DNA from: Phycisphaerae bacterium
Lineage (GTDB): Bacteria; Planctomycetota; Phycisphaerae; WQYP01
Direction: 5' to 3'
DNA length: 64,000 nt
Assembly (NCBI GenBank): GCA_035545015.1
Contig: DASZZD010000059.1
Location: forward strand, 58,864 to 122,863
The position numbers and the translations under genes were made by a program. The notes below the pieces were generated by a model. That model saw only the letters and a list, made by a program, of their open reading frames with translations, was not told where the DNA came from and made no database searches. Positions 11,793 through 64,000 of the stretch are shown here, piece after piece (the first letter of the stretch is position 1; each line of letters begins with the position of its first letter).

Positions 11793-12587
11793 ATGGGATT
11801 GGTTGTGCGACAGGGTGTGTGGGTGGCGGTGGTGTTGGTGGTGGGGGGGGGGGCGGTGTTGGGTATGGGGGTGGCGCGGGGGGAGGGTGGGGATGCGGGG
11901 GGGGGGGATGCGGTGAAGGTGTTGGGGGAGCGGTTGGGGGAGATGAAGGATGTGCGGACATTGCATGCGCGGTTTGTCTGTGAGAAGGATTTGGCACTAT
12001 TGGAGACGCCGCTGGTGAGTTCGGGGGAAGTGTGGATTCGGCGGGGCGGGGAGGGGGAGAAGGAGGGCGGCGCGGGCAGCGGGGCGGCGGTGCGATTTTC
12101 GACGGAGAAGCCGTATGTGTCAGAGTTGATTCTGGTGGAGGGGAAGGTGTATGCGCGGTCGCAGCATGAGGAGTCGTGGAGCAAGAGCAATCAATCGTCG
12201 CGGCCGGGGTTGACGGCGGTGATGGGGCAGTTGGGCGGGTGGGCGACCGGGGACGCGGGGAAGGTGTCGCAGATGTACAGCGTGGCGTTGGCGGCGGGGA
12301 AGGAGGCGGAGATACCGGCGGTGCCGAAGGAGGGGGGGGAGTTGCATGTGGAGGCGGGTGGGGGGGGGAAGGGGGTGGATGTGTTCGTGTTGACGCCGAC
12401 GAATGAGGATTTGGCGAAGGCGGTGAAGAAGATCACGTTGGCGGTGGATCGGGGGACGGGGGGGCTGGAGTATATTTCGATAGAGACGGAGCAGGGGGAT
12501 GTGACGCGGTATTGGTTTGGGGATGTGGAGCGGAATGGGGAGTTGCCGAAGGATGTGTTTGAGGCGAAGGAGGGGGAGGCCCGGTGA
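11793..12587 (+). CDS. LolA-like outer-membrane lipoprotein carrier family protein
   Basis: Signal peptide from Met 11793 (MGLVVRQGVWVAVVLVVGGGAVLG); LolA-like beta-barrel pattern (LHARFVCEKDLALLETPLVSSGEVWIRR...ILVEGKVYAR); sits before the MMPL gene. Confidence 0.6.
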   Translation: MGLVVRQGVWVAVVLVVGGGAVLGMGVARGEGGDAGGGDAVKVLGERLGEMKDVRTLHARFVCEKDLALLETPLVSSGEVWIRRGGEGEKEGGAGSGAAVRFSTEKPYVSELILVEGKVYARSQHEESWSKSNQSSRPGLTAVMGQLGGWATGDAGKVSQMYSVALAAGKEAEIPAVPKEGGELHVEAGGGGKGVDVFVLTPTNEDLAKAVKKITLAVDRGTGGLEYISIETEQGDVTRYWFGDVERNGELPKDVFEAKEGEAR

Positions 12588-27692: not shown

Positions 27693-27729
27693 GGAACAGG
27701 CCTTCGAAAGACAAAAGGAACCGGATGCG

Positions 27730-29517: not shown

Positions 29518-29728
29518 GGAAAGAGGCCCTCCGCTGCATACGGCAATCCTGTTCGCCTAGCAAAGCGCGTGCGCGAGCTGGCCGGCCGGAGTCAGCCCAA
29601 GCGTTGCAAATGTTTTTTAAACCCGCTTCCGCGGGGTATTTCGTGCACTTTGCAAATCTTTAGCGGAGGTATTCCTCTTCCAAGGCATTTCATTTGCTGC
29701 CTAACCATGGGAAAAAACCTTGTGAGGA

Positions 29729-31024: not shown

Positions 31025-31041
31025 ATGGGGAGTCACGTTTC

Positions 31042-32328: not shown

Positions 32329-32392
32329 GCCCTCTTCTCTAGTTGTGGAATCCCTTGTGATTTTGTGAGTTTTGTTAGCAGCAGGCGTGTTT

Positions 32393-35300: not shown

Positions 35301-35551
35301 AAATCGAGCAGGAAACCGACCGCCACGCGCTGCACCTGGCCGACGTGCTGGCCATGGCCATTCGCCATGGCGAGCACGGCGTCCCCGGTTTGCCCGAGCG
35401 CGAGCTGGTGCACAAAGAGAAAGCCGCACACCGCCGGGCCAATCTCCGCGCCGCTCTGGCCGCCGGAACCCTCCTGGCCGCCGGCGCCGCCGTCTGGTGG
35501 ACTCTCAAACAATCGCGCCCAAAACCACCACTTCCCGCCGCGCGCCGGTAG
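32393..35551 (+). CDS. FAD-linked oxidase fused to 4Fe-4S and CCG domains (YdiJ/D-2-hydroxyacid dehydrogenase-like)
   Basis: ~1050 aa; FAD-binding RGGGTSLAGQS, HGDGQSRAELLPKMFG, ferredoxin CxxCxxC (CLSCKGCKHDCP) and C-terminal CCG motifs (CCGMAGAFGY); ORF 32372 with probable start at 32393. Confidence 0.85.
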   Translation: MTDLVHLRQLVEQPRVQRQDHEQRRAKGKGFEVDAGALAARLADELEGEVRFDRGSRALYCTDGSNYRQVPIGVVLPKHARDVIRTVAACRDFGAPLFSRGGGTSLAGQSCNVAVCMDFSKYMNAVVEIDTARKLGRVLPGCVLDDLRTTARKKGLMFGPDPATHTRCTLGGMLGNNSCGSHSHLSQWNGLGVRTSDNTHELEVLTYDGVRMRVGPTSDEELESIIRAGGRRGEIYAGMKAIRDKYGDLIRQRYPKIPRRVSGYNLDELLPEKGFHVARALVGTESTCVTILEATMHLVPNPEHRSLLVLGFEDIFQAGDHATDVLEWKPLTCEGVDRLLFEWEQQRGGHGEGLKLLPKGHAWLYLEFGGSTKEEADANAKKAMEGVKKWKNAPSMKLFDDKEQEETLWQVREGSLGATAWVPGRKDSWEGWEDSAVPPDRVGDYLRDFRKLLQKFNYDTSIYGHLGQGCVHCRIPFDFYTAEGVKTYKNFVEEASDLVMKYGGSFSGEHGDGQSRAELLPKMFGEELINAFREFKRLWDPQSKMNPGKVVDPYRQTDNLRLGPDYNPPQPETHFHYPTDKGSWSRAILRCVGIGACRNHGGQTMCPSYMVTREEEHSTRGRARLLWEMMNGDVIEEGWKSEEVKDSLDLCLSCKGCKHDCPVNVDMATYKAEFLSHYYEGKIRPRHAFAFGFIHVTSVLASKFPAIANLFTQTPLLRNVAKFMAGMEQKRSIPPFAPQSFKDWFRKRPPRNVGKPTVMLFADTFNNYYKPETSKAAVEVLEDAGFHVHVPMADMCCGRPLYDYGFVPTAKRWAMDLMIKMQREIEAGLPVVVLEPSCAAVFRDEITNLFPQQKLAQQLEKQTFVLSEFLEKHAPNYRPPRLLRKALLHGHCHHKAIMHMDDEKALLKKMGLDFREPEDGCCGMAGAFGYEKGDHYKVSIGAGERVLLPEVRNAAQDELIITDGFSCREQIEQETDRHALHLADVLAMAIRHGEHGVPGLPERELVHKEKAAHRRANLRAALAAGTLLAAGAAVWWTLKQSRPKPPLPAARR

Positions 35552-44393: not shown

Positions 44394-44898
44394 CGCCCCA
44401 CGCCCCGCCCCCGCCTCCATCCACGCAGGTCACGAACTCAAAGGCGTCGCCCACCGCGGCATCGGTATCTTCATCCTCTGGTTCTTCGGCACCGCCGTCG
44501 CCCTCTTCATCCTCCTCTGGCTCTTCCTCGCCTACGAAGTCCACCGCGAATCTCGCAATGAGGCCGGCCCCTTCGCCCTCGGAACCGACCGCCCCACCAC
44601 CCTCCCTCAGCCCCTCCAGCCCAGTATCGCCCGCAACGTCCTCCCCTGGCAGGACCTCCCCCCGCTCCGTGACGGCCAGCTCCAACACCTTAATTCCGCC
44701 GGCCCCATCCCCGGTGACCCCGCCCACGTCCACATCCCTATCGACCACGCCATGCAGCTCTTCCTCCAACACGGCGGCCTGAGCACCAAACCCAACCCCG
44801 CCGCCACCACCCCCGCCTCCCCCCCCCGCTCCGCCGAAACCCAACCCTGGATCATCCCCAACCAGGACCGCCCACGCACTGTGGAGAACCGCACATGA
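44386..44898 (+). CDS. Small single-TM membrane protein (possible ActG-like subunit)
   Basis: Start MPDAPRP at 44386, overlapping the actF stop; one TM (GIGIFILWFFGTAVALFILLWLFLAY); position matches ActG of some ACIII operons. Confidence 0.45.
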   Translation: MPDAPRPAPASIHAGHELKGVAHRGIGIFILWFFGTAVALFILLWLFLAYEVHRESRNEAGPFALGTDRPTTLPQPLQPSIARNVLPWQDLPPLRDGQLQHLNSAGPIPGDPAHVHIPIDHAMQLFLQHGGLSTKPNPAATTPASPPRSAETQPWIIPNQDRPRTVENRT

Positions 44899-49796: not shown

Positions 49797-49943
49797 CATT
49801 CGTGTAAATTCGTGCACATTCGTGGACACTTCCCGTCGTCGTCCCCTTTCGTGTTCTTCGTGCCTTTCGTGGCCATTTACGTCGTCGTCGGGGGAGGTGG
49901 GGGGGACCCGCCGTCGTCCTCCGTGCCCTCCGTGCGCTCCGTG
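49797..49943. repeat. Periodic YTCGTG direct-repeat array (3 blocks of 3 units, 9-10 bp period) interleaved with CGTCGTCGTC motifs, upstream of the FNT gene
   Basis: cattcgtg/taaattcgtg/cacattcgtg ... tttcgtg/ttcttcgtg/cctttcgtg ... cctccgtg/ccctccgtg/cgctccgtg, with ccgtcgtcgtcc, acgtcgtcgtcg and ccgtcgtcct spacers. Confidence 0.7.
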
Positions 49944-50877: not shown

Positions 50878-50983
50878 GAAGTAATTGAGTAATGAAGTTA
50901 ATTGAGTAACTGAGACCCGCGATCCCAACCCCCGCATCGCTAGTCCCAATTACTCAATTAACCCAATTAACTCAATTACTTCG
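50878..50983. repeat. Inverted pair of CAATTAC heptamer-repeat arms around a GC-rich spacer (large hairpin, MITE-like or bidirectional terminator) between convergent genes
   Basis: Left arm gaagtaattgagtaatgaagttaattgagtaactgag; right arm cccaattactcaattaacccaattaactcaattacttcg; the arms are approximate reverse complements. Confidence 0.6.
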
Positions 50984-51938: not shown

Positions 51939-52065
51939 ACCCAGCTCCTTCTTTCCGACCACACCTCAATCCACAAACCCACAACCCACCACCATACTCC
52001 CCGCCACCCCTCTTGTCATCCATATTTCTACGCCTTTCGATACAAAGCATGCCGCCCCAAAGGTG

Positions 52066-52090
52066 GCATCGGCGTCCCGCCGATGTTCAT
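52066..52090. repeat. Palindromic 22-25-mer tgNCATCGGCGtcccGCCGATGttc (copy A)
   Basis: Perfect 8-bp inverted repeat catcggcg/cgccgatg with a 4-nt spacer; identical copy at 54274-54299. Confidence 0.6.
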
Positions 52091-52108
52091 CCACCGACCA
52101 ACCGCAAC

Positions 52109-52150
52109 CCCCTCATATAGCCCCCGGCTTGCCGGGGATCACGCCCCGCC
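52109..52150. repeat. ~40-bp hairpin repeat atatagCCCCCGGCttgGCCGGGGatcacgccccgc (left copy)
   Basis: The reverse complement matches 61521-61560 (25/25 identical core atccccggcaagccgggggctatat, plus flanks with one small indel). Confidence 0.6.
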
Positions 52151-52221
52151 GCCAAACCTGTATACGCAGCATCGCCCGTGAGTATCTATGGGATAGTCCA
52201 ACGACGTTCACACCACCACCA

Positions 52222-52560
52222 TCACCCCCCACCGCCACAAAAATCCCCGCGGCTTTCCATGAAGCCCGACAGCCACCCCGCGACCGCCGGCCAAGCCCGC
52301 TTTGTTTTCCACAGGTCCTTCATTACCTCGACCTCAACATCGCGCTCCGCCAGCAGCCGCTTGAGCCGGACGTTCTCTTTCTCTAGCTCGCGCAGCCGCT
52401 CGACCTCCGGCTGCTCCATCCGCCGAACTTACGCCGCCACGCATGGACACTCGACTCCGACACGCCCTGCCCCCCGCGCCAGCTCCACCACCGTGACCTG
52501 CCCCGACTCGGCCTCCGGCAGCAGCGCCGCCATCTGCTCTTCGCTGAACCGCTTCTTCAT
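52222..52560 (-). pseudogene. IS3-family transposase OrfA remnant (frameshifted; no orfB)
   Basis: Minus-strand MKKRFSEEQMAALLPEAESGQVTVVELARGQGVSESSVHAWRRKFGG, then after a 1-nt deletion MEQPEVERLRELEKENVRLKRLLAERDVEVEVMKDL (HTH + leucine zipper of IS3 OrfA); no DDE transposase follows. Confidence 0.65.
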
Positions 52561-52851
52561 ACGACTTCCTGCCTTTCTTGGCTGGAAAGTCTATCCACCC
52601 GGTGGCGTCATTTTAGGGCGCACGGCAATGATCAGCGGCTGCTTGCTTCCTTGACCACCATGCAATTATCATGAACGTCTTCGCTGCAACGCTGACCACA
52701 CCGACGGTCGACCGTCTCACAACTCCACGGCGCTTCAGCGGGTGTGGCACGACTATCCGATTGAACCGGCGAAGTGAACAAAATTTCCGCTCTTTTGATT
52801 TCCCTTGAATCGGGTCCTTGGGAAAAGTTCTTTAACGTTGAGGACTCGCAG

Positions 52852-53973
52852 ATGGGTATATACGAATCGCGAATTCCGTCGCTGGCATTAGCCTCGCTCG
52901 TCATCCTTGGAATCAACTTGGCAGCGGGCGCCGATGAGCCGCCCAAGCCCGTCACATCTGTTGCCGGGGCGGCATGGGCGCAATATGAGGAGCTGAAACT
53001 TGCGCAGCAGAAGTATCCGACATTCGCTTTACCTACGGCGAAAGAGACAAGCAACGCGATGAATTTAGGCTGGCTTTCGGCGAACTACACCGCGCGCTTT
53101 GCCGCGGCGCGATTCATCTGGGAATCATTCCCGAACGATGCTCGGAAATGGGATGCGGCTTTCGAGGTGGTCTCCCTGGGTAGTTTCCTGGGAGACCGCG
53201 GCATCCTTTCGCCGGAAGAAAAGCAGTTGGCAGAAAGACTGCAAGCACTGCTGCTAAGCGATCCCACTGTGCCTGCGGATACAAGAGGCCGTGCCGCCGT
53301 CGTGGATTTCAGCCAGCGGTTGAAATCTGCAGCGAAAGACGGCACAGGACGCAACATGGCCCTCTTGGCAACCCAGCTCGACGAGTTGGGCCAGCAGTAT
53401 CCAAAGGCGGATGGGCTGGACATGCTCGCTTATGACGCTTATCGAGCGTTGCAGCACACCGATCCCGCCGCCGCCGAGGAGTGGGCCCGAAAAACTCAGG
53501 CTAATCCAAACCAGTCTTTGGCTGGCTACGCCAAGGGTATTGTCGCGAAAATCGACTCCGCTCGCCGCCCGATGGAAATGAAATTCACCGCGTTCGATGG
53601 CCGGGAAGTGGACCTGAGCAAACTGCGCGGCAAAGTGGTGTTGCTCGATTTCTGGGGCACGTGGTGCGGCCCGTGTGTCGAGGAACTTCCCTTCATCCGG
53701 AAGCTCCACGCCTCGTATGGTAGCCAGGGTTTGGAGATAATCGGCATTCTGGCGGATGGCGCATCCCGGGAAAAGCTCACCAGTTTTTTGGAGAAAAACG
53801 AAATCACTTGGCCGCAGGATTACGACGGGAAAGTCACTGACAATGAATTTGCGAAAAAATACGCCGTGAAGGAGTTTCCGACAATCATGCTCCTGAACAA
53901 GGAGGGCGTCGTCGTTTCCAACGCGCGAGGAGAAGCGCTTGAAAAACAAATCCGGGAACTCCTCGGATTGTGA
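52852..53973 (+). CDS. TlpA-like periplasmic thiol-disulfide oxidoreductase (thioredoxin fold) with N-terminal helical domain
   Basis: WGTWCGPCVEELP active site; signal peptide after Met 52852 (ORF from 52774); lower GC than neighbours. Confidence 0.8.
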   Translation: MGIYESRIPSLALASLVILGINLAAGADEPPKPVTSVAGAAWAQYEELKLAQQKYPTFALPTAKETSNAMNLGWLSANYTARFAAARFIWESFPNDARKWDAAFEVVSLGSFLGDRGILSPEEKQLAERLQALLLSDPTVPADTRGRAAVVDFSQRLKSAAKDGTGRNMALLATQLDELGQQYPKADGLDMLAYDAYRALQHTDPAAAEEWARKTQANPNQSLAGYAKGIVAKIDSARRPMEMKFTAFDGREVDLSKLRGKVVLLDFWGTWCGPCVEELPFIRKLHASYGSQGLEIIGILADGASREKLTSFLEKNEITWPQDYDGKVTDNEFAKKYAVKEFPTIMLLNKEGVVVSNARGEALEKQIRELLGL

Positions 53974-54273
53974 ACAGTTAAGCGAACACGACGGATCCAG
54001 AAAAGACTGCTATTTATAAATCGGGGCTAATAAGGGAGTCAGGAGTCATTTCAACGGGGGGGGGGGGAAACATGCGACGCCGCCAACTCCAAATATCGCG
54101 AAAAACCCGCAAGATATAAAAATGTAAACATCATGCCATGCGACACGCCCAGCGCTTCCTCGCACCCGCCCTCACCCCGCACCGCCTCACTCGCCACTCT
54201 ACCCCCGCCATCCCGCCCGCGTCCATAAAAATCGCCCTCATCCCTCTTCCCGGATGTGGCCATCTTTTTGTGA

Positions 54274-54299
54274 CATCGGCGTCCCGCCGATGTTCGGCC
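54274..54299. repeat. Palindromic 22-25-mer (copy B, direct orientation)
   Basis: gacatcggcgtcccgccgatgttc; flanks the IS3 remnant plus the TlpA-like gene together with copy A. Confidence 0.6.
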
Positions 54300-54473
54300 G
54301 AAGGCCGATGGCTGAGGGCGCGCGGATGCTTATTTTCGGACACCGGCCCTCTGCGGGCTGGACTCACCCCGCGGAGGGGGGGGTGGGCGTGTGGAGTTGG
54401 CGGTTGGTGGGGTGGTTTGCGGAGGCACAAGGGACCCACCCCGCGGTGGGGGTGGGCTTGGGTGCGTGGGGGG

Positions 54474-57400
54474 TTAGGGAGAGGTGAGGGCGGTGCGCAT
54501 GTTTTGGAGGGTGTCTTTGGGGGGGATGTGGGGGAGGTCGCGGTAGGGGTCGGTGGAGGGGTCGAAGGGACAGAGGGAGGAGAATTGGCAGTCGGTGCAG
54601 GGGGCTTGGCCGCGGGAGCGGTAGGGGGAGGGGGCGATTTTTCCGGAGACGAGTTCGGCGGCGAGGGAGGCGACTTTCCAGCGGGCGAAGTCGAGGAGGA
54701 GCTGGAAGTCCTGGTGGGGGAGCATGTCGGAGTTTTTGGGGATGCCGCCGTCTTTTTTGTAGCCGATGTTGAACCAGTTGCTTTTGTCGCCGGCGTCTTC
54801 GGAGGGGAGGATGGCGTGGTCGAGGAGGTGGGCGGCGGATTCATCGACGATGCCGCGGGGTTTTTGGAATTGCTGGTAGAAGGCGTCGGAGTTTTGGTCG
54901 GGGGCGTCTTCGGGGGCGGGGACGCTTTTCTGGCGGATGCCCAGGGGGATGTAGAGCGCGGCGCGGGGTTGTTTGTGGGCGAGGTCGCGCATGACGAGGC
55001 CGTAGACGGGGAGTTGGAGGGAGAGACCCCAGAAGACCATGGCGAGGTCGAGATCGCGTTTGGCGGCGCTTTTGTAGTCCATGACGGAGACGTCGGGGAC
55101 GGAGACGTTGGGAGCGGGAGCGTTGCCGTGCGCGGGAGTGGCGTCGACGCGGTCGATTTTTCCGGTGACGGCGACGGAGCGGCCGTTGTTCATGGGGATG
55201 CGGAGGACGGGGAGTCGTCGGAGGGTGCCGGGGGGCGGATTTGGGGGCGGGTCGGGGTCGCGGGTTTTGCCGAAGGTGACTTCGACGCCGATGGGCCGCA
55301 TGTCGCCCTGGCAGGCGCGGCGCCGGTCGGCTTCGAGGACGATGCCGAGGGAGCGTGTGGTGCGTTGGCGTTGTTTGTCGTAGCTGGGGAGTTTTTCCTG
55401 GAGCTCTGCGTGGAGTTCGCGGGCAGCGGCGTCGACTTCGTGTTCGAGGGCGCGGCGGAGGTCATGCTCGTGGCAATCGGGCCAGAGGAAGTCGCCGGCG
55501 ATGACGCGGGCGTAGAAGCGTTCGAGGATGCGGTGGTAGAGGGTGCCGAGGTTGAGGGCGTCGAGGGCGAGGAGCTGGCGGGGCTTGAGGCCGAGGGTGT
55601 AGTGCATGAAGTATTGGAGGGGGCAGGCGGCGAATTTTTCGAGCTGGCTGACGGACATGCGGAGTTCGTCGGCGGGGGGGTAGAAGCGCTGGGCGAGGGG
55701 GAGTGCGAGGCGGATTTCCTGGCGGTCGCGGACGCTGGGCCAGACGGCATTGCGGGCGGCGGCGACTTTGGGATCGGTGGTGGTGACGACCCAGTCGTAG
55801 AGCGGGATGAGGGGATCGGCGGGATTCACGGTGTTGCGGTCGATGGCGCGGCGGACCCAGGAGACGGTGGCGGCGAGGAGATCATCGACGGTGGAGAGGC
55901 GGTCGATGCTGGTGCGGGTGGCGGCGTCGAAGGAGCGTTTGACGGGGCGGAGGTGGTGGCGTTCGAGGGAGCGTTCGATGTGGGCGATGTAGCGGCTGCG
56001 GACGACGGCTTTGCCGGCGCGATCGGCGAGGGGGTAGCTGATGATGAGGGATTGAGAGGCGCGGGTGAGGGCGAGGTAATCGAAGAGGATTTCGTCGCTG
56101 AGAGTTTCGGGTTCGGGCTCGCCGTCGAGGAGGGCGCGCTGGGTGGCGGAGAGGAGTGCGTCTTCATCGAGGACGCGGGGGAAGGCACCTTCGAGAGCGC
56201 CCAGGAGGAGGACGAGTTTCATTTCGGGGACGCCGCCGCCCCAGGCGCGGGAGACGGTGCTGACGACGACCTGATCGACGGTGGCGGGGATGAGGCCGAG
56301 GGTGAGGCGTTCGAGAGCGGTGGCGAGGACTTCGGCGAAGCGCGGCCAGGAGATGGGGCGGTTGAGGAGGAGATTTTCGAGGGCGCCGGAAGGGCCGAGG
56401 ATTTCGGCGATACCGTTCCAGGCCTGCTGGTGGAGCATGGCGTCTTCGTTGCGTGCGGAGCGGCGGGCGGTGTCGACCCAGGCGGCGAGCTGGTCTTCGG
56501 CGTGGAGGGTGCGGAGGAGTTGCCAGAGCCAGCGGACTTTGGCGGCGCCATCGTCGGAGAGCACGGCGTCGGGGTCTGCATGTTGCGTCGGGGAAGGCGG
56601 GGCGAGGAGCTGGTGGGTGTGTTGGCGGAGGGTGTTGAGGCGGGCGAGGAGGGCGGGAGCTTCGGGGTCGTTGGGGTCGGCCCATTGCCAGGGGGCGGAC
56701 CAGTCGCCGCGGAGGAGACCGTGGGCGAGGACGTAGTTTTCGAGTTCGGCGACGGCGTCTTCGGATGCGCCGGCGAGGCCGGTTTTGAGGAAGAGGAGGA
56801 GGTCTTCGCCAGCGGGGGAGGCGGCGGCGGTGTGGACGCGGACGGCGACGGCGGCGCGGAGGAGTTCGACGAGGGGGTGGTGGCTGACGCTGCGGCGCTG
56901 GTCGATAAAGAAGGGGATGTCGTGCTGGGCGAAGATGCGGCGGACGGCGTCACCGTAGCCGGAGGGGCCGTCGAGGCGGGGGACGATGAGGGCGATGTTG
57001 CGGTAGCGGAGGGCGGCGGAGAGTGCGCGTTCGCGGATGGTTTGGGCGGCGGCGCGGACTTCGGTTTCGGGGTCGCTGGATTGCCAGAGTTCGACGGCGG
57101 GGGAATCGGCGGGCGGAGGGGTGAGGGTGGAGAAGAGGTCGGGGGTTTCGGTGCGGGGGGCGGTGCGCACGGGGGAGGGTTCGTCGAAAAGGGATTCGAC
57201 GGCGCGGAGTTCGGGGGCGGCGAGTCGCCATGGGTCGCGCATGGGGGCGATGCCTTCGATGGGGAGGGAGTGGCGGCGGAGTTCGTCGCGCAAGCGCCAG
57301 TACATGCGCGTGGTGCGGGCGAAGGGGGAGGCGTCGGCGGGCGGTTTGCGGGTGGGGTGGTGGGTTTGGGCGGCGAGGGAGGGATCGGCGAGGATGGTGA

Positions 57401-58205
57401 TGGTGGTGTGGAGGGCGCGTTTGGCGAGGGCGACGAGGAGGCGGATTTCGAGATAGGACATGGTGGTGAAGCCATCGACCCAGAGTTGGGGTTGCTCTTC
57501 GGGGGCGCCAATGATGGCGGCGAGGGCGGGGGCGTGGGGGTTGGGGTCGGGGCGTTCGAGATCGAGGGCGGCGCGGTGGAGGACTTTTTCGAAATCCCAG
57601 GCGTCGGCGCGTTCGATTTTGTCGGACCAACCTTCGAGGATGATGGCGAGGTCGAGGAGTTTGCGGATGGCGAGGTCGCCGCCGAGACGGTCGGGAGGTG
57701 ACTGCGCGATGAGGTCCCGGAGGCTGGCGCCGGTGTGGCCGGCCTGGCGGAGTTCGCGGAGGAGGGAGTCGAGTTTTTCGATGAAGCCGCGGCGATGGGC
57801 GACGGAACGGAAGGCGTGGAGTTGGGAGCGGTGTTCGCGGAGGACTTCGTCGAGGAGGACGGCGCGGGCGACGTCGTCGAGGATTTTTTTGCCGGCGGGG
57901 GCGGCGCCGTGGGTGTCAGCGAGCCAGCCGGCGTCGCGGGCGATGAGGGTGGCGAGGCGTCGGAAGCTGACGACTTTTGCGCGGAAGGAGCCGATGGGCC
58001 TTTCGTTGGCGCCGCCGCCAGTGAGGAGGAGGCGTTCGGCGGTGAAGGTGCCTTGTTCGGGGACGATCCACCAGAGGGGTCCGCCGCCTTGGCCCGGTGC
58101 GGTCCCGGCGCCGAGGGGATCGCGCTGGAGTTCCTGGCGGAGTTGCCGGGCGCAGAGCCAGGTTTTGCCGGTACCTGCGCGGCCGATGAGGAAGCGGATG
58201 CCCAC
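54474..58205 (-). CDS. AddB-like PD-(D/E)XK nuclease / helicase-nuclease subunit B family protein (no AddA partner in window)
   Basis: GTG start; N-terminal P-loop GRAGTGKTWL; C-terminal RecB-like nuclease with Cys cluster CTDCQFSSLCPF (AddB-type Fe-S). Confidence 0.8.
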   Translation of the reverse strand: MGIRFLIGRAGTGKTWLCARQLRQELQRDPLGAGTAPGQGGGPLWWIVPEQGTFTAERLLLTGGGANERPIGSFRAKVVSFRRLATLIARDAGWLADTHGAAPAGKKILDDVARAVLLDEVLREHRSQLHAFRSVAHRRGFIEKLDSLLRELRQAGHTGASLRDLIAQSPPDRLGGDLAIRKLLDLAIILEGWSDKIERADAWDFEKVLHRAALDLERPDPNPHAPALAAIIGAPEEQPQLWVDGFTTMSYLEIRLLVALAKRALHTTITILADPSLAAQTHHPTRKPPADASPFARTTRMYWRLRDELRRHSLPIEGIAPMRDPWRLAAPELRAVESLFDEPSPVRTAPRTETPDLFSTLTPPPADSPAVELWQSSDPETEVRAAAQTIRERALSAALRYRNIALIVPRLDGPSGYGDAVRRIFAQHDIPFFIDQRRSVSHHPLVELLRAAVAVRVHTAAASPAGEDLLLFLKTGLAGASEDAVAELENYVLAHGLLRGDWSAPWQWADPNDPEAPALLARLNTLRQHTHQLLAPPSPTQHADPDAVLSDDGAAKVRWLWQLLRTLHAEDQLAAWVDTARRSARNEDAMLHQQAWNGIAEILGPSGALENLLLNRPISWPRFAEVLATALERLTLGLIPATVDQVVVSTVSRAWGGGVPEMKLVLLLGALEGAFPRVLDEDALLSATQRALLDGEPEPETLSDEILFDYLALTRASQSLIISYPLADRAGKAVVRSRYIAHIERSLERHHLRPVKRSFDAATRTSIDRLSTVDDLLAATVSWVRRAIDRNTVNPADPLIPLYDWVVTTTDPKVAAARNAVWPSVRDRQEIRLALPLAQRFYPPADELRMSVSQLEKFAACPLQYFMHYTLGLKPRQLLALDALNLGTLYHRILERFYARVIAGDFLWPDCHEHDLRRALEHEVDAAARELHAELQEKLPSYDKQRQRTTRSLGIVLEADRRRACQGDMRPIGVEVTFGKTRDPDPPPNPPPGTLRRLPVLRIPMNNGRSVAVTGKIDRVDATPAHGNAPAPNVSVPDVSVMDYKSAAKRDLDLAMVFWGLSLQLPVYGLVMRDLAHKQPRAALYIPLGIRQKSVPAPEDAPDQNSDAFYQQFQKPRGIVDESAAHLLDHAILPSEDAGDKSNWFNIGYKKDGGIPKNSDMLPHQDFQLLLDFARWKVASLAAELVSGKIAPSPYRSRGQAPCTDCQFSSLCPFDPSTDPYRDLPHIPPKDTLQNMRTALTSP

Positions 58206-58251
58206 GAGCGTGCTCCGATGATGCTGATCCCTGCGCCCCCAATTTTGTGAA

Positions 58252-58467
58252 TTAAAGATCTTGCGGTCTCAACCCGGTGCTACGTGCGATGCGTGCCATC
58301 ATGTGCGGTCCGATCTCGACTCCATCGTGAAAGGCCCACACCTAATCTGGCCATCCATGTCGCGACAGAACCCGATGAGAGCCTCCCGCGCCCCGCTTGA
58401 TCGTCCACTCGATTCGGAATAGCGCGGCGAGTACGCGCTTGGCCTTGTGACTGCCCCACGCGCTCAA
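58252..58467 (-). pseudogene. hicA: hicA-like mRNA-interferase toxin gene, apparently inactivated (no ATG; in-frame TAG)
   Basis: Minus strand: (TTG)SAWGSHKAKRVLAALFRIEWTIKRGAGGSHRVLSRHGWPD-TAG-VWAFHDGVEIGPHMMARIARSTGLRPQDL; HicA/YcfA-like with an internal stop. Confidence 0.5.
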
Positions 58468-58673
58468 GCGGCCTCCACGAAATGCTGGGCGATGGATGGG
58501 ATTTTTTCTCCGTGCTCGATCCGGTCCGCCAGCACGCGCAGAGCCAGTGCCTGGGCTTTCATCGTCGCCTGCTTGCGCGTGCGGCCGTAGACGAGGACTC
58601 CTGGCAGATCTCGCACCTCGGCGATCCAGCGTTTATCTGTCTCTCGTTCAACTTCCACGGTAAAGTGCGTCAT
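58464..58673 (-). CDS. hicB: HicB-family antitoxin
   Basis: MTHFTVEVERETDKRWIAEVRDLPGVLVYGRTRKQATMKAQALALRVL (UPF0150/HicB N-domain); start at 58673 within ORF 58464..58700. Confidence 0.7.
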   Translation of the reverse strand: MTHFTVEVERETDKRWIAEVRDLPGVLVYGRTRKQATMKAQALALRVLADRIEHGEKIPSIAQHFVEAA

Positions 58674-58818
58674 CGTCAACCTCGTTGTTGCAAAAATCAC
58701 TTCGCGCTTCGAGTCAGGCGCGGCGAGCGACGTTCGGCGATTGTATCCCTTCGCTTCACTGGTTGCCTACCATCGTCATCGTTGTGCGGTCCTTTGCACC
58801 TGCTTGATGGGAGTTCTC

Positions 58819-59808
58819 ATGCAATACACGCGGCTTGGCAATACGGGGCTTCATGTTTCGCGGGTGTGTCTGGGGTGCATGTCGTATGGGGCGCCGGGGC
58901 GGGGGACGCATCCGTGGTCGTTGGATCTGGAGGCGTCGCGGCCGTTTATTCGAAGGGCGCTGGAACTTGGCATTACGTTTTTTGATACGGCGAATGTGTA
59001 CTCGGATGGGACGTCGGAGGAGTTTCTGGGGACGCTGGTGAAGGAGGTGGCGAGGACGTATCCGCGGGAGTCGCTGGTGATCGCGACGAAGGTGCATGGG
59101 CGGATGCGGCCGGATGCGAATGGGCGCGGGCTTTCGCGGAAGGCGATTTTGCAGGAGATCGATGCGTCCTTGCGGCGGTTGGGAATGGAGTATGTGGATC
59201 TGTATCAGATTCACCGGCTGGATGCGGAGACGCCGATCGAGGAGACGCTCGAGGCGCTGCATGATGTGGTGAAGGCGGGCAAGGCGCGGTATGTGGGGGC
59301 GTCGTCGATGTATGCGTGGCAGTTTGCCAAGGCGCTTTTTGCGGCGGATCGGTTGGGGCTGACGCGGTTTGTGTCGATGCAGAATCATTACAATCTGCTG
59401 TATCGGGAGGAGGAGCGGGAGATGAATCCGCTGTGCCGGGATCAGGGGGTGGGGATTATTCCGTGGAGTCCGCTGGCGCGCGGGCGGCTGACGCGGGCGT
59501 GGCAGACGCAGACAGAGCGGACGGCTTCGGATGTGTTTGGGGGGAAGTTGTATGGGCAGACGCAGGAGGCGGATCGGGCGGTGGTGGAGCGGCTGGGGGA
59601 GGTTGCGGAGCAGGTGCAGCGGCCGCGGGCGCAGGTGGCGCTGGCGTGGCTGTTGGCGCAGCCGGGGGTGACTGCGCCGATCATTGGGGCGACGAAGATG
59701 GGGCACCTGGAGGATGCGGCGGCGGCGGTGGATTTGCGGTTGTCAGCGGAGCAGGTGGCGGCGCTGGAGGAGCGGTATGTGCCGCATCCGGTGCTGGGGA
59801 TTTCCTAA
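58819..59808 (+). CDS. Aldo/keto reductase
   Basis: MQYTRLGNTGLHVSRVCLGCMSYG, FFDTANVYSDGTSEE, catalytic tetrad context, ~330 aa; start at Met 58819 within ORF 58741. Confidence 0.9.
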   Translation: MQYTRLGNTGLHVSRVCLGCMSYGAPGRGTHPWSLDLEASRPFIRRALELGITFFDTANVYSDGTSEEFLGTLVKEVARTYPRESLVIATKVHGRMRPDANGRGLSRKAILQEIDASLRRLGMEYVDLYQIHRLDAETPIEETLEALHDVVKAGKARYVGASSMYAWQFAKALFAADRLGLTRFVSMQNHYNLLYREEEREMNPLCRDQGVGIIPWSPLARGRLTRAWQTQTERTASDVFGGKLYGQTQEADRAVVERLGEVAEQVQRPRAQVALAWLLAQPGVTAPIIGATKMGHLEDAAAAVDLRLSAEQVAALEERYVPHPVLGIS

Positions 59809-59817
59809 AGTAGCCCA

Positions 59818-60096
59818 TTGGTGCGTCACTGCCCACGGGTTACAATCGCTGGCGTGACACTTGCGATCAAACAAAACGTGACCATTCAACCGGGTGGTGT
59901 CGTTCATCTGGCATCACCGGAGCTTCGGGAGGGGGCGCAGGCGGAGGTTATCGTGCTGGTCACCGATGCGGCCGACGCGGGGAGTCGGCTTGATGCGTTC
60001 CGTGCGTTGCAGGAAAGCCTGGATCTTACGCCGGCCGGCGCCGAGAAGTGGGCCGCCGATGCCGCGGCTGAGCGACAAGCGTTCGGCGCGCAATGA
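59818..60096 (+). CDS. vapB: AbrB/MazE-fold VapB-like antitoxin
   Basis: TLAIKQNVTIQPGGVVHLASPELREGAQAEVIVLV swapped-hairpin pattern; alternative GTG start at 59854; GC3 ~70 %. Confidence 0.5.
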   Translation: MVRHCPRVTIAGVTLAIKQNVTIQPGGVVHLASPELREGAQAEVIVLVTDAADAGSRLDAFRALQESLDLTPAGAEKWAADAAAERQAFGAQ

Positions 60097-60360
60097 TCCA
60101 TCTCGACACCAATTTTCTGATTGCAAGCTTGCTCCCCCGGAACATCGGAAAACCAGCGACTTTCGCAATGGCTTGCCTCCGGGCAGGCCGTAGGTCTGGA
60201 TGTGATCGTCTGGGCAGAATTTCTGTGCGGTCCGGTGGTACCGCAGCAAGCTGCGCTGGCGGCGGGCGCAATCGCGGTCACGTCCAGCGAAAACCTTGTG
60301 AATGACAAGGTCCTCGGCGGAGCACGTCGTGATGCCAACGCTTGGCGCCATTTCCCATAG
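60093..60360 (+). pseudogene. vapC: vapC-like PIN-domain toxin remnant (frameshifted and truncated)
   Basis: MIHLDTNFLIASLLP in frame 0, then in frame +1 ...LSQWLASGQAVGLDVIVWAEFLCGPVVPQQAALAAGAIAVTSS; ATGA overlap with vapB; the C-terminal PIN acidic residues are missing. Confidence 0.4.
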
Positions 60361-60645
60361 CGTGGCACGATCTACGGTTTGCTCTTCAAAGGGAAACGCA
60401 CCGAGCGCCATGTCGATGTCGATGCCGGCGCTGCTTCTGACAAGCAACACGCGGTGTTCCAGGGCAAATTTTCGCGCGTCGCGCAACCGTCCCGGGAAAT
60501 GCTCCAGGACCGGATCCACGTAAGCGGCTTCTGCCCCGAGCCCCGTCAGCAGCGTCAGGTCGACATCCTGCGTGTACGCGGCATTCCCCAGCGTTGCACG
60601 GCCAAACCGCCGATGAAACAGAATCGCCAGCTTCGCTGCCGGCAA
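60270..60645 (-). CDS. Nucleotidyltransferase-like fragment (possible TA/Abi-type NTase), C-terminally degenerate
   Basis: MPAAKLAILFHRRFG...HRVLLVRSSAGIDIDMALGAFPFEE...EDLVIHKVFAGRDRD, then junk composition; overlaps the antisense of the vapC remnant. Confidence 0.3.
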
Positions 60646-60691
60646 AACGCTTCCACTTCCACGGCCGCTGCCAGAACCCCCGAAAGTTCAC

Positions 60692-60910
60692 TCACGACTT
60701 TCTCGGACGCATGAAGAGGGCTTGCTGTTCCACCAGGCCGGACCAGTTTGGCCGGTCGCGCCATGCATTTTGTATCGTTCCCAGCGAGTGCAGTTTGCGA
60801 AGGGCTTCCTCGTCGGTCATCGCGGCGGCTTCCTGGACGCGGATGCGCTCCAAGGCTTCCGCGGCTTCGAGGTATTTCCTGGTCGGGAATTCCGTGGGTG
60901 GATGCTTCAT
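60692..60910 (-). CDS. Hypothetical small protein
   Basis: 72 aa from Met 60910 (MKHPPTEFPTRKYLEAAEALERIRVQEAAAMTDEEALRKLHSLG...); GC3 ~73 %. Confidence 0.35.
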   Translation of the reverse strand: MKHPPTEFPTRKYLEAAEALERIRVQEAAAMTDEEALRKLHSLGTIQNAWRDRPNWSGLVEQQALFMRPRKS

Positions 60911-60914
60911 GCGT

Positions 60915-61373
60915 TTAGTATACCGCGCGGGAACGGGCATTCTCTCCCCGCTCCGCCCATGGTCGCCGGCACCAGTGCCACACCCCCAGTTCTCCCGCGA
61001 GCACTGCGGCCAGGACCACTCCGGTGACGATTCCGCCCAGCATCCACTGCGCTTCCGATGCGGTGATGGCTCCGCCCAGTGCCAGGTCCCCGAGCCCCGG
61101 TCCGGCGGCGAGGGTTCCCTCGAACCCAGCGGCCGCGGTTCCCAGCAGGACAAATGTCCACCAGCGCGGCAGAAAACGCGTCACGTGAAACGCTCCCACC
61201 ATCATCACCAACATGCCCAGCAGCTCCCGGCCGTCATATCCGCGCTGCAACGGCGCGGTACCACTTCCCGCTACCGCCATCGTGAGCAGCATCAATATCC
61301 CGTAGACCAGCATCAATGCCACGCCCGCCACGATCCGCGGCAGCGGCCTGTCTAGCATGCGTTGGGCAGCCAT
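60915..61373 (-). CDS. Hypothetical 4-TM membrane protein
   Basis: 152 aa with four hydrophobic helices; GC3 ~75 %. Confidence 0.4.
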   Translation of the reverse strand: MAAQRMLDRPLPRIVAGVALMLVYGILMLLTMAVAGSGTAPLQRGYDGRELLGMLVMMVGAFHVTRFLPRWWTFVLLGTAAAGFEGTLAAGPGLGDLALGGAITASEAQWMLGGIVTGVVLAAVLAGELGVWHWCRRPWAERGENARSRAVY

Positions 61374-61520
61374 GGGCGGCTTCCTTCAACCGTACTTTCC
61401 ATCCCTCCTACGGCTGCGGGGGCCTCCAGGTTCGGATGCTTCTCGGTGCTGGCGGGCCAAGGTGATCGCATCTGAAGGGTTCAGATTGTGCCTATCCGGT
61501 TTGATCGACGACCTTTAGTG

Positions 61521-61560
61521 CTGCGGGGCTATCCCCGGCAAGCCGGGGGCTATATGGGAT
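61521..61560. repeat. ~40-bp hairpin repeat, inverted copy of 52109-52150
   Basis: ctgcggggctatccccggcaagccgggggctatatgggat. Confidence 0.6.
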
Positions 61561-61566
61561 TGAAAA

Positions 61567-62430
61567 TCAACCTTCGCCCGCACTTGGCTGGCCTTTGCCG
61601 TCGTCGGCGTCGTAGGCGCCGGCCTGTTCGGTGCCTTTGAGGTCGAGGCGTTCGACGCTGAGGGCGTGGCCGCCGATGTCGTCGATGGAGGCGAGGATGC
61701 CGCACATGCGGGGGTCGCCGGTGGCGACTTCGAAGAACTGGGGCATGCCGGTGGTCATGAATTTGAGGATGCGTTCCTTGCGGCGGCCGAGGATGCTGTC
61801 ATAGGGGCCGCACATGCCGAGGTCGGTGACGAGGGCGGTGGTGGCGCCGTTGTCGCCGCGGACGATGCGGGCGTCGGCGGTGGGGACGTGAACGTGGGTG
61901 CCGAAGCAGACGGAGACGCGGCCGGCGACGTACCACCCCATGGCGACTTTTTCGCTGCTAACCTCGGCGTGGAAATCGAGGACTTTGATCTTCACCTCTG
62001 GCGGGATTTTGGCGAGAAGGGCGTCGACGGTGCGGAAGGGATCGTCCATCGGGGGCTGCATGTGAAGGCGGCCCATGACGCTCATGACGGCGACCTTTGT
62101 GCCGTTTTTGGCGGCGACGATGGTAAGGCCCTTGCCGACGGCGGTGGGGGGGAAGTTGCCGGGGCGGACGAGGCGGTCGCTGGTTTCGAGGAGGGGGAGG
62201 ACCTCGCGTTTGCGGTAGGTGTGGTCGCCGAGGGTGCAGCAATCGACGCCGGTGCGGAGGATTTTTTCGAAGAGGAGGGGGGTAAGCCCGCTGCCTCCGG
62301 CGGCATTTTCGGCATTGGCGACGACGAAGTCGATGCCGCGTTCGGTGATGATTTTGGGGAGGAGTTCGGCGACGACCAGTCGGCCGGGCTTTCCGACGAT
62401 GTCCCCGATGCAGAGGATTTTGATGGACAT
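61567..62430 (-). CDS. ymdB: YmdB-family metallophosphoesterase (2',3'-cyclic-nucleotide phosphodiesterase)
   Basis: MSIKILCIGDIVGKPGR...VVANAENAAGGSG...GDHTYRKRE, characteristic of TIGR00282. Confidence 0.85.
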   Translation of the reverse strand: MSIKILCIGDIVGKPGRLVVAELLPKIITERGIDFVVANAENAAGGSGLTPLLFEKILRTGVDCCTLGDHTYRKREVLPLLETSDRLVRPGNFPPTAVGKGLTIVAAKNGTKVAVMSVMGRLHMQPPMDDPFRTVDALLAKIPPEVKIKVLDFHAEVSSEKVAMGWYVAGRVSVCFGTHVHVPTADARIVRGDNGATTALVTDLGMCGPYDSILGRRKERILKFMTTGMPQFFEVATGDPRMCGILASIDDIGGHALSVERLDLKGTEQAGAYDADDGKGQPSAGEG

Positions 62431-62596
62431 GGGAGCACTGTACCGGCGCGCTGCCGGGCCGCCAAACGGCGGGGGTGGGAGCTTAAGTTTCGTCCGTGCG
62501 GAGAGGACGGGACATTCGTCTTGAAGGCTCCAGACTCAAGCACGAAGAGATAAAGGGATGAAGGGCACGAAGGCGCTGGGGAGAATCGGAAAAAGA

Positions 62597-62645
62597 ACGC
62601 CCCGCACATGCCTGCGAGCAGTGTGCGGGGCGTAGCCAGTTGTAA
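62597..62645 (-). terminator. Rho-independent terminator read on the minus strand
   Basis: Minus strand ACGCCCCGCACA-ctgctcgcaggca-TGTGCGGGGCGT followed by TCTTTTTCC; lies at the end of an ORF-free low-GC region. Confidence 0.55.
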
Positions 62646-63117
62646 CGTTGGATGGGGGCTGGGGTCTGGGTTGTGAGCTCAGAAATTTTTAAAAAATCGC
62701 GTTGGCGTAAAGTATGAGATTGGCGGGAATGTCCGCCAAAGTGTCCGAAGACCCACATTATGTCGGTGTTAAGATGCCGCACACATGGGCGTTCGGTGTC
62801 AAAACAACAGGTAAAGACCCCTAAGTACGTTTCCTATCTTCACAAGTAAGGGCTTTACGAGCCTTTACGGACGTTATACACAGGTTATCCGCAAGAGATG
62901 TGCCAATCTCCTACCGAACACAGGGGGATACAGGGGAGTCACAAGTCGGTTTGTTGGCTGTAGTTAGGGGTGGTGAGAACGTGTTGCAACGAGGACTGGC
63001 GGGGGTGGCGGGGGGGAGCGGATGACTTTTCCCCAGAGATGCGGAAAGAGGGACGGGCAAGGAACGTTCGGCGCATGGGCGGGCGCGGGGCGGGAAAGCG
63101 GATAGAATGGTGTTCTT

Positions 63118-64000
63118 ATGACCGCTGATGCCCCATCGTCTGAGTCCGCCTTTCCGGAGCCGGCGCCTGTGGAGGGCGCGGGGGAAGCCTTGCCGGTGGG
63201 GGCGGAGGAATCGGCGGGCGGCACGGAAGAGGCACCGCTGCGGCCGGACCCGGCGCAGATTCACCAGTTGCGCTTTGCGCTCAAGCACGATTTGCAGAAA
63301 CGGATCGATGTGTATTTGCGCGATCGGCTGCCGGCGTATTCGCGGGCGATGATCCAGAAGCTGATTCGGACGGGGGCGGTGATTGTGAACGGGCGGGCGG
63401 CGAAGAGTTCGACGGTGTTGCGGAACGGGGACACGCTGGAGGTGCTGCTGCCCAAGGCGCGGCCGGACCGGCTGTTTCCGGAAGACATCCCGCTCAACAT
63501 TGTGTATGAAGACGACCAGCTCATCGCACTCAACAAGCAGGCGAATCTGATCGTGCATCCGGCGCGGGGCCATTGGTCGGGGACGCTGATCAACGCGCTG
63601 CTGCATCATGCGCAGCAGACGCACTCGACGCTTTCGAGCGGATCGGATCCGTGGCGGCCGGGGATCATTCATCGGCTGGACCGGGACACGACGGGGCTGA
63701 TTCTGATCGCCAAGACGGACGAGGCGCACTGGCGGCTGGCGGGGCAGTTCGAGCGGCGGACGATCAAGAAGACGTACCTGGCGATCGTGCATGGGAACGT
63801 GGAGCTGGATTCGGATCTGATCGATGCGCCGCTGGCGGTGCATGCGAAAACGCGCGAGAAATATGGGGTGCGGCCGGACATCGGCAAAGCGGCGCAGACG
63901 GTGTACACGGTGCGGGAGCGGTTCCAGATTTCGAGCCATGCGCATTACACGCTGGTGGAGCTGGCGCCCAGGACGGGGCGGACGCACCAGTTGCGGGTGC
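63118..64000 (+). CDS. rluD: RluA-family pseudouridine synthase with S4 domain (RluD-like), 3' end beyond window
   Basis: S4 domain (RIDVYLRDRLPAYSRAMIQKLIRTGAVIVNG) and catalytic HRLDRDTTGLILIAKT; no stop before the window end. Confidence 0.8.
   Translation, partial: MTADAPSSESAFPEPAPVEGAGEALPVGAEESAGGTEEAPLRPDPAQIHQLRFALKHDLQKRIDVYLRDRLPAYSRAMIQKLIRTGAVIVNGRAAKSSTVLRNGDTLEVLLPKARPDRLFPEDIPLNIVYEDDQLIALNKQANLIVHPARGHWSGTLINALLHHAQQTHSTLSSGSDPWRPGIIHRLDRDTTGLILIAKTDEAHWRLAGQFERRTIKKTYLAIVHGNVELDSDLIDAPLAVHAKTREKYGVRPDIGKAAQTVYTVRERFQISSHAHYTLVELAPRTGRTHQLRV

Follow-up and report, generated by a model that had tools for sequence, protein, structure and literature searches.

Repetitive extragenic palindromic (REP) sequences with a GTAG tag, including a GTGG variant in Opitutus terrae, have been described for the Planctomycetes-Verrucomicrobia-Chlamydiae (PVC) superphylum (Di Nocera et al. 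2013, PMC3733652), and both REPs and REP doublets forming hairpins (REPINs) have been linked to RAYT transposases (PMC3733652; Bertels and Rainey 2011, PMC3116915). The typical GC skew in bacteria is about 2.5% (SkewDB, PMC8941118). Here we examine a 64-kb stretch of a Phycisphaerae genome, referred to as the window, and in particular the segment from 52.07 to 61.56 kb (about 9.4 to 9.5 kb, here called the block), which contains two copies each of two palindromes (REP-A and REP-B), an addB gene without addA, a remnant of an IS3-family insertion sequence (IS) and debris of toxin-antitoxin (TA) genes. An earlier note had interpreted the block as one old integrated island or composite transposon that is bounded by inverted hairpins and in which the toxins have decayed. 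We instead favor the reading, with a probability of roughly three in four, that the block is not a single mobile element but a patchwork, located where the chromosome is poor in genes and prone to rearrangement, and that the flip in strand polarity at the second REP-B copy is probably an old rearrangement junction. All comparison data were metagenome-assembled genomes (MAGs) and metagenome contigs, among which L001 is a contig from the same strain and L005 is the MAG of the closest relative of the window.

Strand polarity and gene content of the block

The GC skew in the window reaches ±0.3 to 0.6, and the skew at third codon positions ±0.6 to 0.89, which corresponds to about 75% C or about 70% G at these positions (C3 and G3), depending on the DNA strand. 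Extreme skew was also observed in L005, L037, L055, L177, L178, L180, L181 and L182, and no report of such a skew in Phycisphaerae was found in the literature. The skew tracks the DNA strand rather than gene orientation and extends to non-coding DNA. Thus, the plus strand is G-rich across addB (minus strand), the aldo/keto reductase gene (AKR, plus strand) and ymdB (minus strand), and it is C-rich across the formate/nitrite transporter gene (FNT, plus strand), the gene for a PEP-CTERM protein (minus strand) and a sigma factor/redoxin gene at positions 1028 to 4624 (minus strand). Transcription was rejected as the cause of the skew, since Pfam-verified genes of both orientations share one polarity per domain. 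At third positions, T is likewise enriched on the G-rich strand, and the main exchange is of G for C at constant GC content at third positions (GC3).

A bias this extreme marks old residents versus recent arrivals and exposes polarity flips at kilobase resolution. The plus-strand GC3 skew was -0.75 in the PEP-CTERM gene, +0.82 in addB, +0.79 in the AKR gene and +0.75 in ymdB, and it was +0.04 in the TlpA-like gene, -0.13 in hicB and about 0 across the patch at 59.8 to 61.4 kb. The composition of the block is thus a mosaic of host-like and unskewed pieces and not uniformly atypical. By this measure, addB, the AKR gene and the flanking ymdB gene would be old residents, the third positions of which have been saturated by the strand bias. 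The three small unbiased patches, consisting of the TlpA-like gene, of hicB and hicA, and of the vapB-like ORF, the vapC and AbiEii remnants, orf82 and orf152, would be recent arrivals that are now decaying (Table 1). The skew of the IS3 orfA remnant is -0.3 to -0.5; its already carrying the skew of the left-hand domain suggests an older arrival, in which the local bias would have been acquired.

The TlpA patch provides a direct comparison. As the earlier note had pointed out, its GC content is lower, with a value of 0.56 compared with about 0.64 for the window. Only positions 52847 to 53974, essentially the TlpA open reading frame (ORF), are 82.9% identical at the nucleotide level to L179, an unskewed metagenome contig with a GC content of 55%, in which the TlpA homolog adjoins the 3' end of a tRNA gene and an IS66 fragment. 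The named full-length homologs of the protein are from Verrucomicrobiota. Judged by these sequence comparisons, the TlpA cassette is shown to be foreign and horizontally mobile. Being both foreign and unskewed, it validates, for this patch, that unskewed DNA can be equated with recently acquired DNA.

The AddB protein, subunit B of the AddAB helicase-nuclease, contains an ADDB_N domain (PF21445, E = 5e-38) and a PDDEXK_1 domain (PF12705, E = 3e-34), and its C-terminal cysteine motif is conserved with the relative L055. No addA gene was found in the window, nor beside addB in this relative; the 1198-amino-acid ORF at positions 1028 to 4624 was considered as addA and rejected, as it encodes a sigma-70/CarboxypepD_reg/redoxin fusion. 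In 4 outgroup Phycisphaerae (L177, L178, L180 and L181), addA directly follows addB in the order tsaB, addB-addA-(PHO4)-phoU, and their AddB proteins are 72% to 79% identical to each other and 45% identical to that of the window. Since all 4 outgroups have kept tsaB next to addB-addA, addB is, on the evidence of gene order, an ancestral Phycisphaerae gene. The relative and the window are 91% identical in AddB amino acid sequence and 92.9% identical at the nucleotide level, with a synonymous divergence (dS) of 0.12 and a dN/dS ratio of 0.34, and their homology is limited to positions 54421 to 58208. Both flanks differ, and addB, which is central in the block of the window, thus has other surroundings in the relative. 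The orphan AddB-like nuclease pointed out in the earlier note is real; as far as can be judged from these genomes, the orphan state is derived and common to the lineage, the gene being otherwise intact.

The other genes named in the earlier note were recovered as well, some of them as weak matches. The TlpA-like gene, the run of 12 G nucleotides (G12) and the AKR gene are all present, and the IS3 orfA was confirmed to be frameshifted and to lack orfB, for which there is no room in the approximately 70 nt between the end of orfA and the first REP-A copy. The HicA protein matched PF07927 with 27.8 bits (cut-off 27) and contains one in-frame stop codon at about positions 58342 to 58344, in agreement with hicB being paired with a dead hicA; HicB itself was a weak match of 18.5 bits, which is under the cut-off of 27. 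For the suggested vapB with a dead vapC, a frameshifted PIN domain remnant was found, albeit a weak match, and the small ORF upstream of it has no match to any family. The fragment resembling a nucleotidyltransferase (NTase) was retained as a weak AbiEii match. Defense-system models returned only the AbiEii match and one to a Cas4-like nuclease domain, both of them weak, and no defense system was identified by them. The AKR gene shares its DNA-strand polarity with addB despite being encoded on the opposite strand; its ORF opens at position 58741, and the start given in Table 1 was inferred from an MQYTRLG motif.

Table 1. Features of the block and its right flank in order of position in the window, with coding or tag strand and polarity of the plus strand.
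Feature	Position (nt)	Strand	Polarity segment	Remarks
REP-B copy 1	52063-52088	+	to ~52.55 kb, C-rich	GTGG tag, 8-bp stem, TCC loop (CATCGGCG-TCC-CGCCGATG), then TTC
REP-A copy 1	52114-52156	+	to ~52.55 kb, C-rich	(C)ATAG tag, CCCCGG-CTTG-CCGGGG, GCCCCGC tail; tag-bearing strand is the C-rich strand
IS3-family orfA remnant	52222-52560	-	to ~52.55 kb, C-rich	Two frame changes, no orfB; HTH_Tnp_1 54.1 bits after repair
Patch 1	52570-54100		52.57-54.10 kb, unskewed	Lower GC; TlpA-like gene and G12 run
TlpA-like thiol-disulfide oxidoreductase (redoxin) gene	52852-53973	+	unskewed	GC3 0.65
G12 run	54056-54067		unskewed	Within patch 1
Spacer, ~170 nt	54100-54273		C-rich, skew -0.55	Non-coding; last piece with left-hand polarity
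REP-B copy 2	54270-54310	+	54,274, flip point	GTGA tag variant and adjoining small hairpin; C-rich to G-rich exactly here
addB	54474-58205	-	54.47-58.2 kb, G-rich	AddAB subunit B, intact; C3 = 0.77, long resident
Patch 2	58249-58700	-	58.2-58.7 kb, unskewed	hicB and hicA
hicA	58249-58470	-	unskewed	
hicB	58464-58700	-	unskewed	
AKR gene	58813-59808	+	58.8-59.8 kb, G-rich	G3 = 0.69, long resident; Pfam E = 9e-75
Patch 3	59818-61513		59.8-61.5 kb, unskewed	TA debris, orf82, orf152
vapB-like ORF	59818-60096	+	unskewed	No family match
PIN (vapC) remnant	60093-60360	+	unskewed	Frameshifted, truncated; weak, E = 0.016
AbiEii-like NTase	~60290-60764	-	unskewed	Frameshifted, truncated; weak, E = 0.002
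orf82	60692-60940	-	unskewed	Patch 3
orf152	60915-61373	-	unskewed	152-aa membrane protein; patch 3
REP-A copy 2	61514-61556	-		11 nt past the stop codon of ymdB; tag-bearing strand again C-rich
ymdB	61567-62430	-	from 61.57 kb, G-rich	Host gene, right flank; C3 = 0.74

The layout of the window is unlikely to be an assembly artifact, because independent assemblies agree with it: the DNA from position 60342 to 64000 was reproduced, the genes of patch 3 are likewise called in the contig from the same strain, and the gene order around TlpA in an independent assembly agrees out to about 54.5 kb, a comparison based only on how the called genes are arranged.

It was also noted that small TA-like pairs and IS fragments are wedged in by addB in relatives, at positions 1299 to 1944, 9403 to 9989 and 13859 to 14083 in L055 and at positions 3805 to 5587 in L178. 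These cassettes include an 89-amino-acid ORF with a PIN domain, a 108-amino-acid ORF with DUF2283, and DUF433, and most of them are unskewed, which suggests that TA-like cassettes turn over fast around resident genes in this lineage.

The polarity flips 3 times in 64 kb, at about 5.2 to 6.5 kb, at about 25 to 36 kb and at position 54,274, or roughly every 20 kb. A total of about 9 polarity boundaries were compared, which is a small sample. Changes from negative (C-rich) to positive (G-rich) polarity are sharp at 54.27 kb in the window, in L055 (within a 290-nt spacer) and in the spacer between tsaB and addB in L178, L180 and L181, and the negative-to-positive change at 5.2 to 6.5 kb in the window takes about 1.3 kb and spans an intact, translationally coupled KAS operon. 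Changes from positive to negative polarity are gradual and extend over 8 to 10 kb of core genes at 25 to 36 kb in the window and in L177, L178 and L180; in these 3 contigs, the positive polarity fades near rbsD-polyExp-motA. The sharp flip in the spacer between tsaB and addB is located at the same site in 3 of the 4 outgroups (L178, positions 7575 to 8000; L180, positions 9812 to 10000; L181, positions 9714 to 10000), the AddB proteins of which are 72% to 79% identical, and is missing in L177. A motif, TTTTGCAA, was considered as a flip signal and rejected; it is present at several flips elsewhere, is absent at the window flip and resembles the -35 element of the addB promoter.

Two further observations relate to the strand bias. 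A segment of 8 kb at positions 27,700 to 35,500, which contains genes for a thiamine pyrophosphate (TPP) enzyme, LarA-like and GH1-like proteins and an FAD/FeS oxidase, has near-zero skew and lower GC content, and represents either a second, larger recently acquired patch or a diffuse polarity transition zone. Furthermore, G/C homopolymers of 9 to 11 nt are located inside genes at positions 11843 to 11853, 11897 to 11907, 12360 to 12368, 16457 to 16466 and 44819 to 44827, and always agree with the strand polarity at their site. The block is therefore not alone in having such a run (G12), and these homopolymers seem to be a side effect of the strand bias that could cause frequent frameshifts.

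Two families of tagged palindromes

Both palindromes are tagged, dispersed REP elements, which belong to two families and were found in many other genomes and contexts. These two REP families, common to several classes of the Planctomycetota, are documented here. With up to 3 mismatches allowed, a REP-A 21-mer and the REP-B 22-mer each matched the window twice, and 2 matches were obtained in none of 100 shuffled sequences for either of them. All 4 copies in the window, 2 per family, fall in non-coding DNA. In other genomes or contigs, both families form inverted, REPIN-like doublets, whereas the window holds single copies only. The palindromes are dispersed in other genomes, as generic REPs would be, and exact REP-A appears to be low-copy in this group, with 1 to 2 copies per Phycisphaerae MAG.

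REP-A is the hairpin repeat that the earlier note had described in inverted orientation at both ends of the block, and it is indeed present there. The exact common core consists of 26 nt, CATATAGCCCCCGGCTTGCCGGGGAT, at positions 52114 to 52139 on the plus strand and 61531 to 61556 on the minus strand, with a 6-bp stem and a CTTG loop, and the arms reach 43 nt at 81% identity. In a scan of species-representative genomes with a 20-mer, REP-A was identified in 51 genome stretches, 33 of which were from a single 9.8-Mb Planctomycetota MAG, CAVYEC01, where almost every copy is part of an inverted doublet, CACATAGCCCCCGGCTTGCCGGGGA-(5-10 nt)-CCCCCGGCAAGCCGGGGGCTATGTG, sited between ordinary genes; a Gemmataceae MAG contained 4 copies. 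The copies in L009 and L014 are also located between ordinary genes, and the genes there that are flanked by two REP-A doublets code for a malate dehydrogenase-like protein and an ABC ATPase, with no RAYT gene among them. Nearly all planctomycete REP-A copies bear the (C)ATAG tag. REP-A was also found in the skewed Phycisphaerae relatives L005, L037 and L035, and the variant of the window itself (CATATAG...GGGGATA..GCCCCGC) is present as single copies in Phycisphaerae MAGs, including L005, the copy of which is 93% identical to the second window copy across 43 nt.

The REP-B 22-mer, CATCGGCGTCCCGCCGATGTTC, is located at positions 52067 and 54274, both on the plus strand; the direct orientation reported for it was correct, and the first position, given as 52066, was off by one. 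The stem is 8 to 9 bp long. As single-stranded DNA (ssDNA), copy 1 folds with -13.2 kcal/mol (z = -4.65) and copy 2 with -17.7 kcal/mol (z = -4.05). Copy 1 is located in C-rich DNA, that is, of negative polarity, upstream of the PEP-CTERM gene. A scan of metagenome contigs with the 19-nt palindrome gave matches in at least 120 contigs. Among the matches listed, the 5' tag is conserved, being mostly GTGG and in several cases GTAG, and REP-B is often accompanied by a related hairpin in inverted orientation, CATGGCCGGGACGGCCATG-CCAC. In L163, a tandem array at positions 2463 to 2822 contains five units of about 84 to 86 nt, each consisting of REP-B and a second hairpin with a GAGAC loop (CACGGGCGAGACGCCCGTGCCAC); the units are near-identical throughout and hence not CRISPR-like.

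The orientation of the palindromes follows the strand polarity. In 10 of 13 skewed contigs, REP-B has its tag on the C-rich strand, and so do the two copies in the window, where copy 2 was judged by the C-rich DNA to its left. REP-A likewise has its tag on the C-rich strand in L005, L037 and L035 and in the two window copies, the second of which was assessed against the G-rich ymdB domain next to it. The two REP-A copies are therefore mutually inverted because the strand polarity flips between them, at position 54,274, and no role as terminal inverted repeats is needed. Spread through ssDNA at the replication fork has been shown for relatives of IS200/IS605. If REPs are spread by RAYT-type HUH transposases acting on ssDNA at the fork, as we infer, their orientation would be expected to be tied to the strand polarity, and the observed pattern fits such a mode of spread. 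To our knowledge, a link between REP orientation and extreme strand bias has not been described. A phage origin of the palindromes was considered and rejected, as neither of them matched in viral contigs.

Alternative explanations for the block and the flip

Several observations weigh against the patchwork reading. The copy numbers of the REPs in the genome itself refer to the 64-kb window only, the exact REP-A core is low-copy in Phycisphaerae MAGs (1 copy in the MAG of the 93% relative and 2 in the JTS-RE9 MAG), and a high copy number of REP-A was shown only for other Planctomycetota, not for this lineage. Single REP-A copies are not significantly stable when folded as ssDNA (z = -0.44 and -1.51), and no RAYT gene was found in the window or linked to either family. 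All 4 REPs of the window are located within 9.5 kb, which contain 49% of its non-coding DNA (P about 0.06), and this clustering may have a local cause. For the hicBA patch and the patch at 59.8 to 61.5 kb, we infer a recent arrival from the lack of skew, direct validation being confined to TlpA. Finally, no clean empty site was found in relatives, the contigs with related ymdB genes being too short or too distant to show one.

The interpretation of the block as one old integrated island or composite transposon is largely refuted by the results, and we consider it highly improbable. The inverted repeats of 26 to 43 nt at both ends, which gave rise to it, belong to dispersed REP families, and the IS remnant that lies within together with TA debris is a lone orfA fragment. 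There is no second IS copy, no integrase among the ORFs and Pfam matches of the block, and no tRNA gene, tmRNA gene or Rfam family match, the edges of the block included. Acquired and decaying accessory DNA is present, as the earlier note had proposed, in the form of the TlpA cassette, the hicA stop codon, the frameshifted PIN and AbiEii fragments and the IS3 remnant; the foreign DNA is, however, divided into three separate patches, and between them are addB and the AKR gene, which are fully equilibrated to the strand bias of the host, addB being ancestral to the class. A relative shows no synteny across the block, in line with the earlier note, and the 4 REP copies of the window all cluster in it; however, the k-mer atypicality for which the note had proposed a scan was not borne out, in that no 1-kb window at 52 to 61.6 kb exceeded z = 2 in a strand-symmetrised scan of 4-mers. 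Considered as a possible mobile element, the block is unremarkable, and classifying it as an island delimited by hairpins would be mistaken.

Two further explanations, which are about how the flip arose, do not conflict with the patchwork reading, and the probabilities of the readings therefore need not add up to one. Recombination between inverted REP or IS copies might have turned around the whole block or a portion of it, which would have made the flip and parted addB from addA. The REP-A copies are inverted and REP-B copy 2 is located exactly at the polarity flip, with the IS3 remnant adjoining it and the break of the addB-addA operon within about 200 nt; however, a segment bounded by the REP-A copies has exactly one internal flip in either orientation, so that the layout cannot discriminate, and repeats of 26 nt are short substrates for homologous recombination. 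The coding-strand bias of addB is opposite to that of the outgroup orthologs, and gene order has been scrambled at a dS of 0.12, as an inversion would predict, but the bias of addB has fully re-equilibrated and is common to the relative, which implies an old event that predates the unskewed patches, and the other REP copy has no addA gene beside it. We consider such an inversion unlikely. Alternatively, the flip might be a fixed functional boundary, marking the start or end of replication or of some other process that treats the two strands differently, and REPs and foreign DNA would accumulate at it, as would be explained by an insertion-tolerant non-coding site. Position 54,274 would then be one of many such boundaries in a chromosome that is copied, mutated or repaired asymmetrically in units of about 20 to 50 kb, with defined starts and diffuse ends. 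The independence of polarity from gene orientation, the skew of non-coding DNA, the sharp negative-to-positive flips as opposed to positive-to-negative changes over 8 to 10 kb, and the flip that crosses the intact, translationally coupled KAS operon are all in line with this, and so are the 3 outgroups (AddB identities of 72% to 79%) that flip at the same syntenic site between tsaB and addB, although L177 does not. Against this stand the small number of boundaries, about 9, all from MAGs or metagenome contigs, the lack of a DnaA-box cluster at either flip, polarity units of a size unprecedented in bacteria, and orthologs such as ymdB that switch polarity between relatives, which fits rearrangement. 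Both the fixed boundary and its extension to the whole chromosome are, in our judgment, quite improbable.

As to the general shape of the flips, many recent inversions were rejected as a poor fit, since these would give sharp edges both ways and no conserved positions, and so was the bias from a single replication origin, which would give domains of megabase length. Many fixed starts with diffuse ends fit the shape, although unprecedented for bacteria, and we report this as an observation and not as a finding. If true, it would mean a multi-site, origin-like organization with a ten-fold G/C bias, for which we know of no precedent in bacteria. For position 54,274, we consider it most likely that the flip, which coincides with the break between addB and addA, is an old rearrangement junction that would later have gathered REPs and insertions, and the patchwork reading would account for REP-A and REP-B as single REP copies in non-coding DNA. 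The cause of flips every 20 kb or so, sharp in one direction and gradual in the other, could bear on replication and rearrangement in these little-studied bacteria.

Other features of the window and comparison with known systems

The flank downstream of ymdB differs in relatives. In a relative with 84% identity, 4 independent assemblies (L182 to L185) end at the same base, 31 nt past the ymdB stop codon (...CACAAATGAACACGAATGG), which suggests that a multi-copy element starts there; the ymdB gene of this relative is G-rich on the coding strand, the opposite of the window. The only adjacent pair of DnaA-box-like 9-mers, TTATACACA and TTATCCGCA, is located at positions 62874 to 62893, off any flip, in a spacer of low GC content (51% to 56%) upstream of the neighbor of ymdB. 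A 73-nt non-coding segment at positions 49808 to 49880, upstream of the FNT gene, is 87.7% identical to positions 4186 to 4255 in L005, where the gene context is unrelated, and has no Rfam match; it could be a further dispersed repeat or else a small RNA with a regulatory function. An AT-rich inverted repeat at positions 50890 to 50969, with 34-nt arms that are 79% complementary and a 12-nt spacer, separates the FNT and PEP-CTERM genes, which are convergent, and is probably a bidirectional terminator. The ORF at positions 1028 to 4624 on the minus strand encodes extracytoplasmic function (ECF) sigma-70 regions 2 and 4, CarboxypepD_reg repeats and a C-terminal redoxin/AhpC-TSA domain. This would be an unusual fusion, provided that the ORF is a single gene, with a second TlpA-type domain in the window.

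Compared with known systems, the block resembles a genomic island or composite transposon in that it holds horizontally acquired DNA, an IS fragment and TA modules, and in that the flanks differ between relatives. Unlike such elements, it has no IS pair, integrase, tRNA gene or att site, its end repeats are generic REPs, ancestral host genes are located inside it, and the foreign DNA is in three separate patches. In contrast to an intact IS3 element, in which orfA and orfB are joined by a -1 frameshift and enclosed by terminal inverted repeats, only a broken orfA is present. The patches resemble the type II and type IV TA modules HicAB, VapBC and AbiE, which are typically small mobile cassettes set between host genes, in having hicB next to hicA, a small ORF followed by a PIN remnant, and an NTase similar to AbiEii, but all three toxins in the window are inactivated, hicA by a stop codon and the others by frameshifts and truncation, and the HicB, PIN and AbiEii matches are under the Pfam cut-offs. 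The window AddB shares the ADDB_N and PD-(D/E)XK nuclease domains with AddAB (RexAB), and related Phycisphaerae have kept the addB-addA operon; unlike in that operon, addB has no adjacent addA in the window and in the relative with 91% amino acid identity, the split being right after the addB stop codon.

REP-A and REP-B resemble REPs and REPINs in being short, GC-rich, extragenic palindromes with an unpaired 4-nt tag at one end (ATAG in REP-A, GTGG or GTAG in REP-B), in having many dispersed copies in some genomes, frequently as inverted doublets with short spacers, and in their occurrence in the PVC superphylum. They differ from these in that the window contains single copies only and the copy number in the lineage seems low, in that the REP-A tag is ATAG and not the canonical GTAG, and in that no RAYT gene is linked to either family. 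The polarity switches, finally, are step-like, as are the GC-skew switches at origins and termini, at inversion scars and in the skew N-domains of eukaryotes, and the T-richness of the G-rich strand at third positions is as in the leading-strand signature. Unlike the known switches, they mainly exchange G for C at constant GC3, occur 3 times in 64 kb, and are sharp from negative to positive and gradual from positive to negative polarity, with an amplitude that is about ten-fold the usual (30% to 60% compared with about 2.5%; SkewDB, PMC8941118).

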